This document shows, piece by piece, positions 4,145 to 9,968 of a stretch of DNA of 64,000 nt. Each line of letters begins with the position of its first letter. Positions within the stretch are counted from its first letter, which is position 1. The notes under the pieces were generated by a model. It was not told the origin of the DNA, searched no databases, and worked only from the letters and a program-made list of their open reading frames with translations. The stretch comes from a virus (Duplodnaviria; Caudoviricetes). A program made the translations under genes and the position numbers. The stretch lies in IMG/VR virus record IMGVR_UViG_3300021431_000003, positions 32,001 through 96,000 of that record; one strand, written 5' to 3'.

Positions 4145-4942
4145 ATGATGAACGTAAGTAAAAGACATGTCTATTTTATAGAAGGCGGAGATAATGTAGG
4201 TAAGACTACTACTATTCAAACTTTTAAACAGAATAAGTATATTGAATCTATTAAATTCAATAGAGTGAGATTCTCTAAATATCCAACTAGTGATGCTACT
4301 AATACTATCAATAGACTCAATACTTTATATAAAGAGAATGAAGCTAGACATAAGAATAAAGAAGTTAAAGATAGTGAGTATGTAAGAACTAAAAGAAGTA
4401 TATTAGAAAGTCTTATCAATACTATGATATGTGATATGATATCTAGTTTTGATACTCTATATAATGATAAGTGGGCAATGGCATGTCCAGATGATGTATT
4501 AGAAATATGTGATAGAGGATTTCTATCTACTTATCTATACCAATATAGAGATATGCCTGGATTAATACAAAAACTTATATCAAATATAGATGTAGAACTA
4601 GAATATCTTAAAGCATTCATTAACAAGTATCTACCACCTACAATGAATGATATCAATGTTATTATACTCAATAATAATGCTAATCCATTACTAGCAAATA
4701 TTATAATGGATGACACTGAGACTATAGAGTATAAGAAAGACTTTGATAACAATATAGAACTTCAGAGTAGGATTAACAATTCTTTAAATAATATAGTAAG
4801 ACTGATTCAACAAGATAAGGTATATGATTTATTACCAATCAAGTTTTATTATATTAATATATTTGACGAAACAGGTTCTATCAGAAAATCCCCCGATGAA
4901 ATCTGTGAAGAAATCAAAGCCATTATAAACAAGGAGGAATAA
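4145..4942 (+). CDS. tmk: Thymidylate/deoxynucleoside monophosphate kinase
   Basis: FIEGGDNVGKTT P-loop and ICDRGFLST (DRx-x-x-S) motif; adjacent to thyX. Confidence 0.75.
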   Translation: MMNVSKRHVYFIEGGDNVGKTTTIQTFKQNKYIESIKFNRVRFSKYPTSDATNTINRLNTLYKENEARHKNKEVKDSEYVRTKRSILESLINTMICDMISSFDTLYNDKWAMACPDDVLEICDRGFLSTYLYQYRDMPGLIQKLISNIDVELEYLKAFINKYLPPTMNDINVIILNNNANPLLANIIMDDTETIEYKKDFDNNIELQSRINNSLNNIVRLIQQDKVYDLLPIKFYYINIFDETGSIRKSPDEICEEIKAIINKEE

Positions 4943-4945
4943 CAC

Positions 4946-6109
4946 ATGTTTGGACCATCTTCAATCAAATTGAAATGTAGACTACTCTATAAGAATAGTC
5001 TAGTCAATAACATCTATGAGGCATGTACTTGTTGTTATGACAATACTAAGAATATCAATTATTTAGAAAAGAAAGATTATATCGGCAAGAGAATCAATGC
5101 TGGTCATGAATCTATTCTAGAACATGGAAGACTTGCTATTCTTTTTAATGATATCCCTTATAGTCTTCATAATGATATTATTGAACTTATAGGATTAGAA
5201 TACTCTAAGTGGTTAGAATTCTATACTGTACAACTTGAAAATAGAAACTACAATCTTATTGTCAATGGTAGTATCAGAGCATATAAGCATTTTCTTAACA
5301 ATCTTGAAGCAGATGTATATGATAGAAACGATATTATTCGTGATATCTGTAAGATTCTTAGAGAAAATACTGTAAAAGAACTCTATGGTAAGAGCAAGCA
5401 TATTAACTTTGATGATTTTGTCGATGTAGAACCAGATGTATTAGATATTGATATACCTAATACTGGTATTGACTATGATATCGTTTGTGAAAAATCTATC
5501 GATGGTGTTGTTACTAATGGAGAAGAAGGTATTAAGAGAATCACACTTGGAGCAGATGAACTATTTGTTACAGAACTCTCTGATATCAAAGAAGTTATTC
5601 TTCACTATGGATTTAATAAAGCTGTAATCTATAATATTCTTCCTATCACAGTAGTATTCTATAACATGTCTCGTACAGCAACACATCAACTTGTACGTCA
5701 TAGAAATGCTATTACACAAGAATCTCAAAGATATGTAAATGCTAAGAATGCTACATTTACTATTCCTGTACCAGATTATACAGATGAAAAAGAGTATACT
5801 GTAGAAATCTTTGGTAATAAAGTTACAGCACCTCTTACTGTACTTGCAACTGGTCTTACTAAAGTATATGACCAACTAATTAGACAGGGTCTTAAGAAAG
5901 AAGAAGCAAGAGCATTCCTACCAGCAAATATCAATTGTGGTAGATTATATATGACATTCACTTTATCTAATCTTATTGCTTTCTTAAATCTTAGAACAGA
6001 TCCACATGCTCAATATGAGATTAGAAAGTATGCTGAAGCTATAATTGACTTGATTACTTCTATTCCAGACTATGCTATTCTAATTGATAATTATAATAAT
6101 ATAGTGTAA
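4946..6109 (+). CDS. thyX: FAD-dependent thymidylate synthase with an extended, two-lobed architecture
   Basis: GHESILEH, SRTATHQLVRHRNAITQESQRY, KEEARAFLP and FLNLRTDPHAQYEIR motifs. Confidence 0.92.
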   Translation: MFGPSSIKLKCRLLYKNSLVNNIYEACTCCYDNTKNINYLEKKDYIGKRINAGHESILEHGRLAILFNDIPYSLHNDIIELIGLEYSKWLEFYTVQLENRNYNLIVNGSIRAYKHFLNNLEADVYDRNDIIRDICKILRENTVKELYGKSKHINFDDFVDVEPDVLDIDIPNTGIDYDIVCEKSIDGVVTNGEEGIKRITLGADELFVTELSDIKEVILHYGFNKAVIYNILPITVVFYNMSRTATHQLVRHRNAITQESQRYVNAKNATFTIPVPDYTDEKEYTVEIFGNKVTAPLTVLATGLTKVYDQLIRQGLKKEEARAFLPANINCGRLYMTFTLSNLIAFLNLRTDPHAQYEIRKYAEAIIDLITSIPDYAILIDNYNNIV

Positions 6110-6126
6110 TTATTTATTAAACTACC

Positions 6127-6140
6127 AACTATAAAGTAAT
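6127..6140 (+). promoter_or_regulatory. Late-type promoter AACT-N6-TAAT driving a non-coding RNA
   Basis: AACT-ATAAAG-TAAT; predicted +1 (6138) coincides with the first base of the first stem. Confidence 0.65.
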
Positions 6141-6372
6141 GCATTAATGATGTGTGCTGTCAGTATGTGATGGCTTTTTCCGTCGTTATGCATTTGCGCA
6201 AGAGCAGAAGCTGTATTTGCTTTATATTACAGCTGTGTGTGCTGACATAGGCGGATCTGAGCTTGACACTAGCGACTAGGTACCATCGCTGAATAAGTGT
6301 CTGTAAGACTCCCCCACTCCTAGCACTGCAAGCACAATTGTGTTAAGCCTATCATTGCAGCTTTCTGCTCTT
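6138..6372 (+). ncRNA. Unrecognised, highly structured non-coding RNA (transcript probably extends to the terminator at ~6460)
   Basis: GC-richer ORF-free island with stems 6138-6152/6181-6194 and 6200-6215/6356-6372, inner helices, a possible long pseudoknot, and its own promoter and terminator. Confidence 0.7.
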
Positions 6373-6432
6373 ATTATTTTTTAAAAGTTCCTATACTCAG
6401 GGTCATAAAATACTGTCCTTTCAAAAAGAATT

Positions 6433-6462
6433 TGAACCCTAGCACAAAGCTAGGGTTCATTT
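6433..6462 (+). terminator. Intrinsic terminator ending the ncRNA unit
   Basis: TGAACCCTAGC-ACAAA-GCTAGGGTTCA followed by TTT. Confidence 0.8.
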
Positions 6463-6473
6463 CTGCCGTTTTG

Positions 6474-6487
6474 AACAAATTAGTAAT
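6474..6487 (+). promoter_or_regulatory. Late-type promoter AACA-N6-TAAT
   Basis: AACA-AATTAG-TAAT, 26 nt upstream of the ATG at 6513. Confidence 0.7.
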
Positions 6488-6512
6488 ATATTCAATGAAA
6501 GGAGTATATCTC

Positions 6513-9500
6513 ATGGAAGAATATAGAAATATACTTGCTAACAAGTTTATGCGAGATACTAACTATATAATTATCAAAGATACTGATGACCTTGAAGAAC
6601 TAGAACGTCAATGGGAATTATTTCAATCTTCTCTTACTGTAAGACAACAGAGACTAAGCGATGATAGATCTCTTCAAATTTGGAATATGACTAATCAACA
6701 GCATTATGAAACTTTAAAAGCTGAATTGATGGGAGACTTACAGAATAAACTAGGTATAGAAGATGATGAACCTATATCTATTGAATATGAACCAGATGAT
6801 GATGAAAAGATAGATGATAGTGAAATTACAAACTTTGTTAATATGTCTTTTGATGATTTTGAGATTCCAGATGATGAGAACGAAATCTCTGAACCTATGA
6901 AAGAAGAATCTACTATACCAATTGATCCAAATCAAGCATATATAGATAATCATAGATGGAAGATTGGATATGATGGTATTGACAGAGAGAAAGATAAGAT
7001 TGCTGACCAATATGAGATTGATTCTAATATTAATATTATCGGTGGTGTATATGGTGAAACACCTAAAGAACTGTTAGACAATCTTGAAAAAGCATATCAA
7101 GCTTGGAACTCTCAAAATCAAGACCATAGAAAAAAGTCTGATGATAAGTGCAGAGAAATCTATGGTATGTCTAATATAGATAGATATAATAAGCTTAAAG
7201 GCATTTTTGTAAAGATGTCTGTTCCAAAGACAGATAAAGATGTATCTAAGAATATTAGTAATAATACTAATTCTTCTGAAGAAGCATTAAGCGAATTTAC
7301 TCTAGAAGTATATCGTAATATGCAAGTAGTTAATGAAGCAGAATCTAATAAAGCCAAACAACATAGAAGACTCAATGATACTCCATACTTTACTCCAAGT
7401 GAAATGATTGATATGGGAGTACATGGTAATCATAATTACTATTGTAAAGATGCAGATAATGATGGTCTTATTACAAGAGTAAGAATTCCAACTTGGTTTG
7501 ATTCTTATAAAGATATGTGTATGGACCATATCTTTGAAGACTATACTAGAGATTGGATTGATACATTAGACTATCTATACTCAGATTTTGAAGAGATTAA
7601 AGAGTCTGGTAATGAAGAAAAGATTCTTGCTCGCAAACAGTCTATTCTTGATTTGGGTTGGAATCCAGAGATTCCATTTACTAGACGTAATAGACAATTA
7701 GCATCCAAACGTGTATCTAAGCTATTAGATAAATCTAGTCCAATGAATCTCTTTATTAATCTTGATAAAGAAGTTCCAGATGAAGCTATAACAGATGAAC
7801 CTGTTACAGAAAATGCATCTAAAGATACGCATCAGCCTATCTATATGGTATTTGTACAAGGCAAAGCTCCTGTCGTATCAACTGCTATTAAGAAGGTTAC
7901 TAATTCACCATTCTCTCACATTGGTATCTCTTTTGATTCAAAATTAAATACTGTACACACATATAATATGGTACCAAAACCTGGCGTAGTAAAAGAAACT
8001 TTGTCTGGTTATAAAGATAATATCATTACAGTAATGGCATTCTTTGCTCCTACAGATATCTATAACACAATGAAAGACACCGTAATGGATTATTATATCA
8101 ATGCTAAGAAAACTGTATATGACTTTGGTATTATTTTTAATAAGCTAATCAATAAGAATGCTAGAGTAGTAAACGATAAGTACCATCAAGTATGCTCTAC
8201 ATTTGTTGATACTGTGCTTAAGTCTGGTAAAGTAACGTTAGATAAAGATGCTAATGTACCATCTCCAGCAGAATTATATAATGCTACTAAGTCTATGCCT
8301 AATAAGATTATTGAAGTATATTCTGGTCCAGCAGATAAATATGATAGTGTTAAAGTAGATAAGAAGATGAATAAACTCTTAGAAAAGGGCACTAAAGCTA
8401 TTGATGAAGCAACTGATATTGCTTCTCAAATTAAACTTGTACCAGCAACCCAATCTGATACTGAAAATATGTATAATTGGGAAATGGAGTCTATTGATAA
8501 ATCTCTTCAATCTGATAGTAAAGTTATATCTTGCATTAAACAAGATGTACAAGATTCTATCAAAGATACTAAGATGATTACTTATAATAACAAAACTATC
8601 GGTATGCTAACTTGCTGTTATATAGATAACGGTGAATGGTGGTATATTGGCGAGATTTATCTAATACCAGAATATCGTAATAAGGGTATTGGTACAAAGC
8701 TTATCAAAGAACAAATGCAATCTCGCGATAAAATCAAACTTCAAGTAGCATATAGTAATAAGGGTGCTATAAAGTTGTATAAATCTCTCGGATTCAAAAC
8801 CATAAATAAAAATGATAAAGGTAAGATGTATATAATGGCTTACGATAAATCTCAATCTTTAGAAGAAGCTGTAACTGATTTAAAATCATCAGAATCTAAT
8901 GATATATATCATAATATAGAGGATTGGGAGTCTGGTAAATCTAACTTATTATGGATTACTGGATTATCTGGTTCTGGTAAATCTACTATAGCTAAAGAGA
9001 TATCTGGAAATAACATAGAACATGTAGAACTGGATAATCTTCAAAGAGCTAAAATGGATAACTGGGACCACACTGGTTCTACACTTATGGATGATTATAT
9101 TAAATCTAAAGGTGGTCTTACTAATATCTTTTCTTATGTAAACGATTTAGATGAAGTTAGATGGAAAGACTTAGTGTCTAATGAAACTGAATGTCCTAAG
9201 CAATTCAATGATTTCTTTGAATATATAATTAAATATGCTAATACTCATAAAAATAAAAGATTCGTTGTAGAAGGCGTACAAATTGCAATGTGCTCCAAAA
9301 ATACTACTATAGCAAAGATATCTAAATACCCAGTTATTATAAAAATGAATGGTCCTCTCAAAACAGAATTTCGTAGAGAGAAACGTACCATACAAACAGG
9401 TATAGATAAAAATGATACCTTTATAAAAATATTAAAGACTGTTGCTAATAGACATAAAAACTGGTGGAAACAAAACTTTTATATGGATGATTGGAAAGAA

Positions 9501-9968
9501 ATCAATTACTTTAGAACTCATATAGGAGAATCAGCTTCTATACTTAATGAAGTAAAGCAATTCCCAGTAGAATTCGACAAAGATGGTAATCTCATTATCT
9601 ATAAGGTTCGTATAGGTTCTATCGCTTATGGTGATGAGATTGATGATTCTGTAAAGTTATTAGAGTCATATAGAAATACTAACAATATTGAAGGTATGAA
9701 ATATGAACTCGCTAAGCTTTGGTTCATTAACGATTCTATTGAAAAGAAGCTTAAAAAGAAACTTACTAATGACCAATATAAAGAACTTATTGACCATAGA
9801 GCTACTTGTTTGAATGTATTTAAGCTCAATCTAGAATATGTAATGAAAGCAGAGAAAGGATTTAACTTCTCAGACTATTATAACTCTACTCCATTCTCTG
9901 ATAATTCAATTAAGATTACTGCTAATACATTAAAATACTCTATGAAAGCTATTGCTAACATGATATAA
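6513..9968 (+). CDS. Multidomain probable virion/head polyprotein: N-terminal duplicated helical repeat, permuted NlpC/P60 (YiiX-like) peptidase, GNAT acetyltransferase, P-loop kinase-like domain
   Basis: Start moved to ATG 6513 (AAAGGAG RBS). SPFSHIGISFD...QVCSTFV (His before Cys), WYIGEIYLIPEYRNKGIG...AIKLYKSLGF, and WITGLSGSGKST. Confidence 0.78.
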   Translation: MEEYRNILANKFMRDTNYIIIKDTDDLEELERQWELFQSSLTVRQQRLSDDRSLQIWNMTNQQHYETLKAELMGDLQNKLGIEDDEPISIEYEPDDDEKIDDSEITNFVNMSFDDFEIPDDENEISEPMKEESTIPIDPNQAYIDNHRWKIGYDGIDREKDKIADQYEIDSNINIIGGVYGETPKELLDNLEKAYQAWNSQNQDHRKKSDDKCREIYGMSNIDRYNKLKGIFVKMSVPKTDKDVSKNISNNTNSSEEALSEFTLEVYRNMQVVNEAESNKAKQHRRLNDTPYFTPSEMIDMGVHGNHNYYCKDADNDGLITRVRIPTWFDSYKDMCMDHIFEDYTRDWIDTLDYLYSDFEEIKESGNEEKILARKQSILDLGWNPEIPFTRRNRQLASKRVSKLLDKSSPMNLFINLDKEVPDEAITDEPVTENASKDTHQPIYMVFVQGKAPVVSTAIKKVTNSPFSHIGISFDSKLNTVHTYNMVPKPGVVKETLSGYKDNIITVMAFFAPTDIYNTMKDTVMDYYINAKKTVYDFGIIFNKLINKNARVVNDKYHQVCSTFVDTVLKSGKVTLDKDANVPSPAELYNATKSMPNKIIEVYSGPADKYDSVKVDKKMNKLLEKGTKAIDEATDIASQIKLVPATQSDTENMYNWEMESIDKSLQSDSKVISCIKQDVQDSIKDTKMITYNNKTIGMLTCCYIDNGEWWYIGEIYLIPEYRNKGIGTKLIKEQMQSRDKIKLQVAYSNKGAIKLYKSLGFKTINKNDKGKMYIMAYDKSQSLEEAVTDLKSSESNDIYHNIEDWESGKSNLLWITGLSGSGKSTIAKEISGNNIEHVELDNLQRAKMDNWDHTGSTLMDDYIKSKGGLTNIFSYVNDLDEVRWKDLVSNETECPKQFNDFFEYIIKYANTHKNKRFVVEGVQIAMCSKNTTIAKISKYPVIIKMNGPLKTEFRREKRTIQTGIDKNDTFIKILKTVANRHKNWWKQNFYMDDWKEINYFRTHIGESASILNEVKQFPVEFDKDGNLIIYKVRIGSIAYGDEIDDSVKLLESYRNTNNIEGMKYELAKLWFINDSIEKKLKKKLTNDQYKELIDHRATCLNVFKLNLEYVMKAEKGFNFSDYYNSTPFSDNSIKITANTLKYSMKAIANMI

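Follow-up and report, generated by a model that had tools for sequence, protein, structure and literature searches.

Between a ThyX-like gene and a gene encoding 1151 amino acids (aa), a spacer of 403 bases (positions 6110-6512 of the window) holds an element that we regard as a real, conserved and structured RNA gene of the plus strand, without a match in Rfam 15. The window is the whole stretch of DNA that was analysed, 64,000 nucleotides (nt) corresponding to bases 32001-96000 of the virus record IMGVR_UViG_3300021431_000003 (Caudoviricetes), which is 223,528 bp long with direct terminal repeats and has a genomic GC content of ~30%. An earlier note, made from the letters of the window, had described the element as a stand-alone RNA in a GC-richer island free of open reading frames (ORFs), and the island is indeed there: no ORF of at least 60 aa is present in 6110-6431, and the GC content reaches 45-47% at 6150-6350, compared to ~30% in the flanks. 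The element is considered noncoding because the only ORFs have 32 and 41 aa (both with GTG starts) and the indels seen in its relatives are not multiples of three. Folded as RNA, 6138-6462 has a minimum free energy (MFE) of -104 kcal/mol (plus strand, z = -5.8 against dinucleotide shuffles; z = -4.0 for the opposite strand).

A common frame with an exchangeable middle part

Relatives were gathered via ThyX, since the 3' end of its gene abuts the element, and the syntenic intergenic regions were taken from IMG/VR, JGI, ENA and Logan contigs. This resulted in a set of 16 loci, the window and 15 syntenic loci of related metagenomic phages, the ThyX proteins of which are 46-92% identical to that of the window. 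A single frame is common to all 16 loci. It starts with the motif AACTATA(A/T/G)AGTAA and a hairpin (P1) that begins at the predicted +1, continues with a variable middle part and a CU-rich block (usually UCCUUUC), and ends with a strong hairpin that has U-rich sequence behind it, another motif (UUUGAAC-N5-UA(A/G)UAAUAU) and the ribosome-binding site (RBS) GAAAGGAG of the next gene. The first motif is retained in 16 of 16 loci, down to a ThyX identity of 46%, and the second is kept in nearly every relative, those without the rod described below included (L005 has UUUAAC and L091 has UGGAAC at its beginning).

The middle part occurs in several forms. Nine distinct sequences (the window, L074, L077, L078, L081, L082, L002, L079 and L083; L002 is identical to L093 and L094) carry an insert of one type, here called type A, which folds into a rod. 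No insert is found in L080 (ThyX 77% identical to that of the window) and in L003 and L005 (46-47%), in which P1, the CU-rich block and the terminator are kept. L086 (65%) has a shorter middle part with GGUACC inside a putative hairpin loop (UCAGU/ACUGA by eye; its MFE fold pairs part of GGUACC), and other inserts of 250-350 nt, without a match in Rfam, are present in L090 (1814-2296), L091 (3133-3496) and L092 (3133-3592), the whole RNAs of which fold at z -2.4 to -6.0. A type-A profile (nhmmer) gave no matches to these other inserts, and when type A was aligned locally with the middle parts of L086, L090, L091 and L092, z reached at most 2.7, which is not significant. Resemblances to type A noticed by eye in L086 (the GGUACC hairpin and an AAGAG-type closing stem) and in L091 (GCUUUAU..ACAUAGG..CCACCGAG) are not claimed as homology, the alignments being not significant. 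The presence of the insert does not track ThyX identity (L080 at 77% is without the rod, L083 at 66% has it). In these 16 loci, the frame of the small RNA is conserved more widely than the 175-nt domain, which is an optional insert specific to a lineage; the earlier note had overlooked this.

As far as searched, the RNA gene is confined to one clade of phages of roughly 215-230 kb, and the names of the records suggest ruminant gut metagenomes as their source (e.g., PRJEB21624, which we take to be a cow-rumen study). Two details of the relatives may be added: the rod-less locus L080 (3167-3361) has a longer P1 of 66 nt and carries UCCUUUC twice, immediately behind P1 and again ahead of the terminator, and a short motif, AUUCGCAG, is common to L090 and L091, with two copies in L090.

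Table 1. Features of the element and its surroundings in the window
Feature	Position	Strand	Remarks
ThyX-like gene	4946-6109	+	stop at 6109, adjoins the element
Promoter motif AACT-ATAAAG-TAAT (class AAC-N7-TAAT), AACTATAAAGTAAT	6127-6140	+	predicted start A6138
P1, 5'-terminal hairpin, 57 nt	6138-6194	+	6138-6152 pairs with 6181-6194
Linker U(G/A)CGC between P1 and rod	6195-6199	+	UGCGC or UACGC(GG) in 9/9 type-A sequences
Rod domain, ~175 nt	6200-6372	+	insert as modelled 6195-6374
P2, 16 bp	6200-6215 with 6356-6372	+	closing stem of the rod
P3	GCUUUAUAU 6219-6227 with GUGUUAAGC 6340-6348	+	invariant, so covariation uninformative
Window-specific 10-nt insertion CAGCUGUGUG in internal loop	6230-6239	+	absent from 8/8 type-A relatives
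Conserved UGCUGACAUA in large internal loop	6240-6249	+	UGCUGACAUA invariant
P4, GGCNGN with NCNGCC	GG(C)GGA 6250-6255 in the window, partner ambiguous	+	from covariance model/RNAalifold
P5	GAGCUU 6259-6264 with AAG(A)CUC 6305-6311	+	covaries, through L083
P6	GACACU 6265-6270 with AGUGUC 6296-6301	+	covaries; 5-nt purine-rich bulge between P6 and P7
P7	AGCGA 6271-6275 with UCGCU 6286-6290	+	covaries
Apical loop, 10 nt, CUAGGUACCA	6276-6285	+	palindrome GGUACC at 6279-6284
3' tail	6373-6432	+	small hairpin ~6385-6398, GUCAU 6402-6406, UCCUUUC 6416-6422
Terminator hairpin UGAACCCUAGC-ACAAA-GCUAGGGUUCA, then UUUCUG	6433-6465	+	hairpin proper 6433-6459
Second promoter, same class, AACAAATTAGTAAT	6474-6487	+	serves the downstream gene
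RBS GAAAGGAG	6497-6504	+	of the 1151-aa gene
Downstream gene, 1151 aa	6513-9968	+	start codon 6513

Structure and covariation of the rod

A covariance model (R1) of the insert was built from the nine type-A sequences, and the same nine were re-aligned to it (alignment A5). In the initial structure 90.7% of the cells are paired and 16 of 39 pairs show compensatory changes. RNAalifold, run on the model-fitted alignment, proposes a simpler, all-nested rod, in which 95.0% of 397 cells are paired (28-47% when the partners are slid by 1-3 columns). Compensatory changes, the presence of which in homologues the earlier note had made the test of its stems, are found at 18 of the 45 pairs of this rod, compared to 1-3 in the slid structures and 5.4 +/- 1.6 in shuffled ones (0 of 500 shuffles reach 18), although the sample consists of only nine sequences, six of them close, and the alignment behind the counts was fitted to the model and thereby favours the structure, which has to be held against our reading. 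Some strands of L002 and L078 that pair perfectly by eye (UUAGAU/AUCUAA, UGAUU/AAUCA and GAACA/UGUUC in L002) are misplaced in the model alignment, and on that account the compensatory counts are not inflated.

The stem that closes the rod was correctly read from the window (P2 is present in the fold), and two of the helices that the earlier note had nested within it, P6 and P7, covary. A third one, ATAGGC/GCCTAT, had to be given up: it forms in close relatives, it is uncompensated in L081 (4 of 6 pairs), L002 (3 of 6) and L083 (4 of 6), and it competes with compensated helices. The invariant helix GCTTGACAC/GTGTTAAGC conflicts with the covarying P5. About 26 of the 335 paired cells of the initial structure are G-U, and R1 scores 100-204 bits on the plus strand compared to 10-21 bits on the minus strand; both favour an RNA of the plus strand, as had been supposed from G-U pairs in the window.

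The palindrome GGUACC is invariant in the apical loop of all nine type-A sequences while the stem beneath it varies (AGCGA/UCGCU, GGUGA/UCGCU, GGCGA/UCGCC, UUAGAU/AUCUAA and AUCGG/CCGAU), and the RNA contains no second copy of GGUACC for intramolecular pairing. Because the loop is palindromic, invariant over changing stems and without a partner in the molecule, a kissing-loop or a protein-recognition site is suspected.

P4 shows a peculiarity of its own. It has a central mismatch of two identical bases that are altered together among close relatives (U.U in L074, L077, L079 and L081, A.A in L078, C.C in L082), whereas this position is G-U in L083 and C-G in L002 (A5 columns 57-65 and 146-151). 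The two strands (6250-6255 and ~6310-6320 in the window) are near-palindromic and are, in consequence, also direct repeats (GCCGCCACCGAGC and GCCGCCACUAGC in L082). The parallel change of the mismatch could reflect a third partner shared by both strands.

Promoter class, predicted start and the 5' hairpin

The promoter motif that had been proposed with a +1 at 6138 is present and belongs to a class, AAC-N7-TAAT, that is enriched before genes: 37 of its 77 sites in the genome (48%), the promoter at 6474-6487 among them, are followed within 70 nt by a Shine-Dalgarno (SD) sequence and an ORF of at least 60 aa, compared to 2-10% of the sites of nine control motifs (permuted halves or other spacings). 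Two beta-like genes and one beta'-like RNA polymerase gene are encoded in the genome, and jumbo phages of the AR9 and phiKZ types likewise encode beta-/beta'-like RNA polymerase genes. The late promoter of AR9, AACA-N6-TA/G, with its last base as the start site (PMC5312081), is of the same form as the motif found here; the last-base rule, applied to the motif of the window, gives A6138 as +1. The promoter class together with the hairpin at +1 provides good indirect support for a predicted start at A6138 and for an independent transcription unit, and the latter is further suggested by the other conserved promoter of this class, which lies past the terminator and ahead of the RBS. Any "late" timing is by analogy only, namely with the late promoter of AR9.

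P1 was said to start exactly at +1, and this holds not only for the fold of the window: in 12 of 12 loci folded by script, a pair of nucleotide 1 with the hairpin's final nucleotide closes the stem, and in L091, L092, L003 and L005 a similar +1 hairpin was found by reading the sequences. In the window the base of P1 is AAUGCAUU/AAUGCAUU and its apical hairpin GCUGUCA/UGAUGGC. The base covaries (AAUGUAUU/AAUACAUU in L002 and L083, AAUACAU/AUGUAUU in L080, AAAUGAAU/AUUCAUUU in L086 and AAAUGCA/UGCAUUU in L090), and the apical part is variable among the loci. The P1 of L091 is a minimal stem of 6 bp with a GAAA tetraloop. A pairing of ~17 bp between the P1 loop and AGCTGTGTGTGCTGACA in the rod, which had been put forward as a long pseudoknot or switch, did not survive the comparison: half of the partner (CAGCTGTGTG, 6230-6239) is an insertion peculiar to the window, and the best duplexes of the loop in the relatives lie at differing places, with z -1.2 to +1.0 against shuffled loops.

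A similar layout was observed ~22.7 kb before the start of the window (G000:C1:9245-9376), where an AAC-N7-TAAT motif is followed, after ~60 nt, by a perfect hairpin, UAUCCACACAUG/CAUGUGUGGAUA, by AAAUACUGUCCUUUG, and then by another AAC-N7-TA motif with an RBS and a gene behind it. The order promoter, short RNA, terminator, promoter and gene may be a recurring layout in this phage.

Tail, terminator and anti-Shine-Dalgarno block

The terminator hairpin that the earlier note had seen was found again. Close relatives retain its stem and vary in the loop, and distant ones have other perfect stems at this place (GUCCACAUC/GAUGUGGAC in L003, GUAACCCUGACG/CGUCAGGGUUAC in L090, GAACCACCGC/GCGGUGGUUC in L092). 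The minus-strand tail of the hairpin is AAUUCUUUUU, and, in the manner of bidirectional terminators, an AGAA on its upstream side can pair with a UUCU on its downstream side; the genes around it (4145-9968), however, are plus-strand genes.

UCCUUUC precedes the terminator in 13 of the 16 loci, irrespective of the insert, and in L086, L003 and L005 only a shorter CU-rich version (for instance CUCC or UCCUUU) is present. UCCUUUC is the complement of the phage RBS GAAAGGA and is similar to the 3' end of 16S rRNA. The small hairpin of the tail covaries by eye (GAGU/ACUC, GAAC/GUUC, A7/U7). MFE folds that begin with the tail and extend to the next gene's start codon pair the SD sequence with the UCCUUUC block in 10 of the 16 loci, with the terminator hairpin nested inside. 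Anti-SD action is, with moderate confidence, the most likely role of the frame.

Several ideas about the tail were tried and abandoned. The base beside UCCUUUC appeared to covary by eye (A-U/G-U/G-C, 9 of 13 loci) and failed in an energy-based test. A search of the genome for a trans target of long complementarity (blastn-short) gave matches of 11-17 nt at chance level only. A minus-strand micro-ORF behind GAAAGGA would have 5-15 codons, is variable and unconserved, and lies beyond the hairpin for leftward transcription. One 14-nt same-strand match of the tail, at genome positions 9332-9345, falls after another terminator, the hairpin of G000:C1:9245-9376.

Database searches and family assignment

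With E up to 10, Rfam 15 gave no match on the rod of the window; the best matches overlapping 6127-6465 were rli52 and Phe_leader on the tail and terminator (E 1.1-1.2, 21-23 bits compared to gathering scores of 55-70), and a match to snR46 (E 0.58, gathering score 60) sits inside thyX. Eight relatives, searched with E up to 1, had no match in the homologous region. ARAGORN found only three transfer RNAs (tRNAs) at 761-1043 and no tRNA or transfer-messenger RNA (tmRNA) near 6138-6465, so that the impression gained from the letters that the element belongs to no known family is borne out as regards Rfam, tRNA and tmRNA. Neither blastn against GenBank phages (no similar DNA) nor a strict pattern search of GTDB genomes gave a match. 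In IMG/VR a strict pattern found L002 alone, and a pattern scan of metagenomes found one new homologue (L074), L002 again and one false positive. The loose pattern GGTACCA..TAAGAC..GTTAAGC gave nine more matches in IMG/VR, which seem to be coding, unrelated sequences without any of the other type-A blocks and were discarded. The element is present in one copy in the genome, both by BLAST and by covariance model.

Some classes of elements were considered and rejected. A group I intron does not fit an element that is intergenic (after the thyX stop at 6109) and has no match in Rfam. A riboswitch or attenuator was rejected on three grounds: the 16-bp P2 closes the rod 60 nt upstream of the terminator, with no complementarity between P2 and the terminator on reading; tail and terminator are unchanged in the loci that have no rod; and the downstream gene has its own promoter past the terminator. 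A phi29-like packaging RNA (pRNA) has no match in Rfam here, and the gene is not terminal, lying 38 kb from the end of the genome. A miniature inverted-repeat transposable element (MITE) or other repeated mobile element is contradicted by the single copy, by terminal repeats that are compensatory rather than conserved in sequence, and by the pattern scan of IMG/VR, in which no other context turned up.

Neighbouring genes

The product of the 1151-aa gene has GNAT and P-loop matches (Pfam) at residues 674-921. The ThyX-like protein has 387 aa, of which only residues 233-371 match Pfam Thy1 (profile positions 58-186); its first ~230 residues are without a family match, and the N-terminal part is alignable in relatives down to ~46% identity (query coverage from residue 7-9). 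The three tRNA genes at 761-1043 form a cluster on the minus strand (Glu-UUC, Leu-UAA and Leu-UAG).

Interpretation

In our view the element is best explained as a stand-alone small RNA (sRNA) gene of a jumbo phage with its own multisubunit RNA polymerases, the RNA combining an anti-SD tail with a lineage-specific rod; we give this explanation about an even chance. Transcription would run from A6138, driven by the AAC-N7-TAAT promoter, to the hairpin at 6433-6459, giving an RNA of ~325 nt with a hairpin at both ends. This RNA would be built in two layers, a clade-wide frame consisting of the 5' hairpin P1, the single-stranded CU-rich UCCUUUC and the terminator, and a lineage-specific insert, here the irregular rod of 175 nt with its conserved internal loops and its invariant GGUACC apical loop. 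On read-through of the terminator, the tail, as a generic anti-SD element, would pair with the RBS of the 1151-aa gene, which follows 75 nt further on, so that only transcripts started at the promoter of this gene itself, located between the pairing partners, would yield its protein. A free sRNA tail might also pair with other GAAAGGAG-type RBSs. The rod would be an added module, the palindromic loop of which serves most plausibly for loop-loop homodimerisation or protein binding.

Conservation, covariation, strand, single copy and the statistics of the promoter class are established directly. Several points weigh against this explanation. In the MFE fold of the window itself, the SD sequence is not paired with UCCUUUC but uses other partners. 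In the genome of the window, the initiation region of the neighbour ranks only 100th of 190 for pairing with the tail, and cognate tail-RBS duplexes of 13 lineages are no more stable than non-cognate ones (-14.25 vs -14.13 kcal/mol, p = 0.43), which led us to reject the idea that the tail targets specifically the RBS of its neighbour. A scan for consensus terminators flags the hairpin solely in the minus orientation, the U-tract on the plus strand being weak (AUUUCUGCCGUUUU). Start, end and timing of the transcript are predictions, as is the anti-SD action, and dimerisation through GGUACC is something we infer from just the palindrome and its invariance. Finally, an inhibitory leader of the T4 type would need no promoter of its own, no 5' hairpin and no 175-nt rod.

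The first alternative, rather unlikely in our estimate, is a purely cis-acting leader or insulator: instead of a free sRNA, the element would be the end of the thyX unit plus an attenuator, in which the terminator and the anti-SD block upstream-driven expression of a late gene and the rod only stabilises or times the RNA. Anti-SD, terminator, promoter and SD follow one another as in T4 gene e, and cis proximity would confer specificity on a tail that is generic. The layout of a leader of the T4 gene e type was found, whereas pairing that is neighbour-specific and co-evolving was not. Moreover, the element is preceded in every locus by a conserved promoter motif that has a hairpin at its +1, an insulator has no need of the conserved loops and covarying helices of the rod, inspection revealed no alternative pairing between rod and terminator, and in L080, L003 and L005 the frame works without the rod.

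A second alternative, which we hold to be unlikely, takes the locus as a cassette site, a conserved scaffold (promoter, 5' hairpin, tail and terminator) in which related jumbo phages could exchange RNA modules of complex fold (none, the GGUACC rod, the larger inserts of L090-L092). The module of the window would be a new RNA that associates with itself by kissing loops or sequesters a factor, with machinery of the host or the phage as its target late in infection. If this were true, the locus would be the equivalent, at the RNA level, of hypervariable protein islands in phage-host conflict.

Quite unlikely is a self-assembling or scaffold RNA, either forming homodimers or higher oligomers through GGUACC kissing loops or belonging to a ribonucleoprotein of the phage (packaging or virion), with the anti-SD tail being incidental. 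The palindromic loop is invariant above covarying stems and the sequences of the internal loops are conserved, like those of RNAs with complex folds; natural RNA-only homo-oligomers, some of less than 200 nt, have been documented (PMC12286853; bioRxiv 10.64898/2026.07.01.735769). Against it stand the lack of a match to the Rfam models of phi29 pRNA, ROOL and GOLLD, the position of the gene, which has no recognised packaging gene next to it and is 38 kb away from the end of the genome, and the retention of the locus in relatives without a rod. A role as virion or packaging RNA finds no support in any of the tests run.

We are more doubtful still about inserts that act as decoys or sponges for factors of the host or of rivals, such as defence nucleases, RNA-binding proteins or sRNAs, and are exchanged under arms-race selection. 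At least four states of the insert (none, the type-A rod, the short form of L086 and the inserts of L090-L092) occur in one frame, independently of ThyX identity as far as the rod is concerned, but this turnover could equally be neutral gain and loss, the inserts have no match in Rfam and no target was identified.

The suggestion of the earlier note that the RNA is a 6S-like decoy of host or phage RNA polymerase is very unlikely. The ~175-nt rod, with its long closing stem, large internal loop and terminal stem, is reminiscent of 6S RNA in its overall shape, but there is no match to 6S in Rfam at E up to 10, the whole RNA contains neither AAC-N7-TAAT nor its complement, its long loops are invariant, whereas 6S RNAs mostly conserve shape, and the rod is dispensable in relatives. 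An element acting at the level of DNA or a mobile repeat (origin, pac site, protein-binding palindrome or MITE), for which the long inverted repeats, the palindromes AATGCATT and GGTACC and the GC-rich island might speak, is scarcely credible: helices maintained by G-U would be A-C mismatches on the other strand, AATGCATT is changed to AATGTATT...AATACATT in L002, L083 and L084 with the pairing kept and the palindrome lost, and the genome holds a single copy, with no other context found in the pattern scan of IMG/VR.

Jumbo phages with their own multisubunit RNA polymerases are known almost exclusively through their proteins, and few structured RNAs have been described from them. To these the element adds a new and well-supported RNA fold, in which internal loops and a palindromic loop are invariant and which lies in a unit predicted to be read by the phage polymerase. 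If expressed as predicted, it allows direct tests of whether uncultivated phages of the gut and rumen control translation at the RNA level, and likewise of the self-association of a short natural RNA and the modular exchange of RNA domains between phages. Its present value lies in a defined family with a covariance model.

Comparison with known systems

Genes e, soc, 49 and I-TevI of T4 have inhibitory leaders with the late promoter inside the stem, so that only late transcripts escape the helix (PMC3014915). The element is like these leaders in having an SD complement upstream (6416-6422), the SD sequence (6497-6504) and a promoter (6474-6487) between them, with pairing predicted in 10 of the 16 loci. 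Unlike in T4, a distance of 75 nt, within which the terminator hairpin is nested, separates the anti-SD block from the RBS; the block is preceded by a promoter of its own, by a 5' hairpin and, in the lineage of the window, by the 175-nt rod, and it is generic rather than tuned to its neighbour.

With 6S RNA the element appears to share a rod-like fold of ~175-180 nt and a large internal loop between the closing and the terminal stem; it differs in several further internal loops of invariant sequence, in the invariant palindromic apical loop, in the lack of a 6S match and of a promoter mimic, and in a rod that is optional within the clade. Like phi29 pRNA, ROOL, GOLLD and manA, it is a phage-borne structured RNA in its own predicted unit, with a loop potentially capable of intermolecular pairing; unlike in these RNAs, the loop is complementary to itself and not to a different loop, Rfam gives no match, and the gene is not at the end of the genome.

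Trans-acting sRNAs of bacteria and phages use CU-rich seeds that pair with Shine-Dalgarno sequences. Although the element is far larger than these sRNAs, has most of its conserved information outside the seed and comes without an identified specific target, it agrees with them in its single-stranded CU-rich block, which is complementary to the RBS consensus and placed just before an intrinsic terminator.

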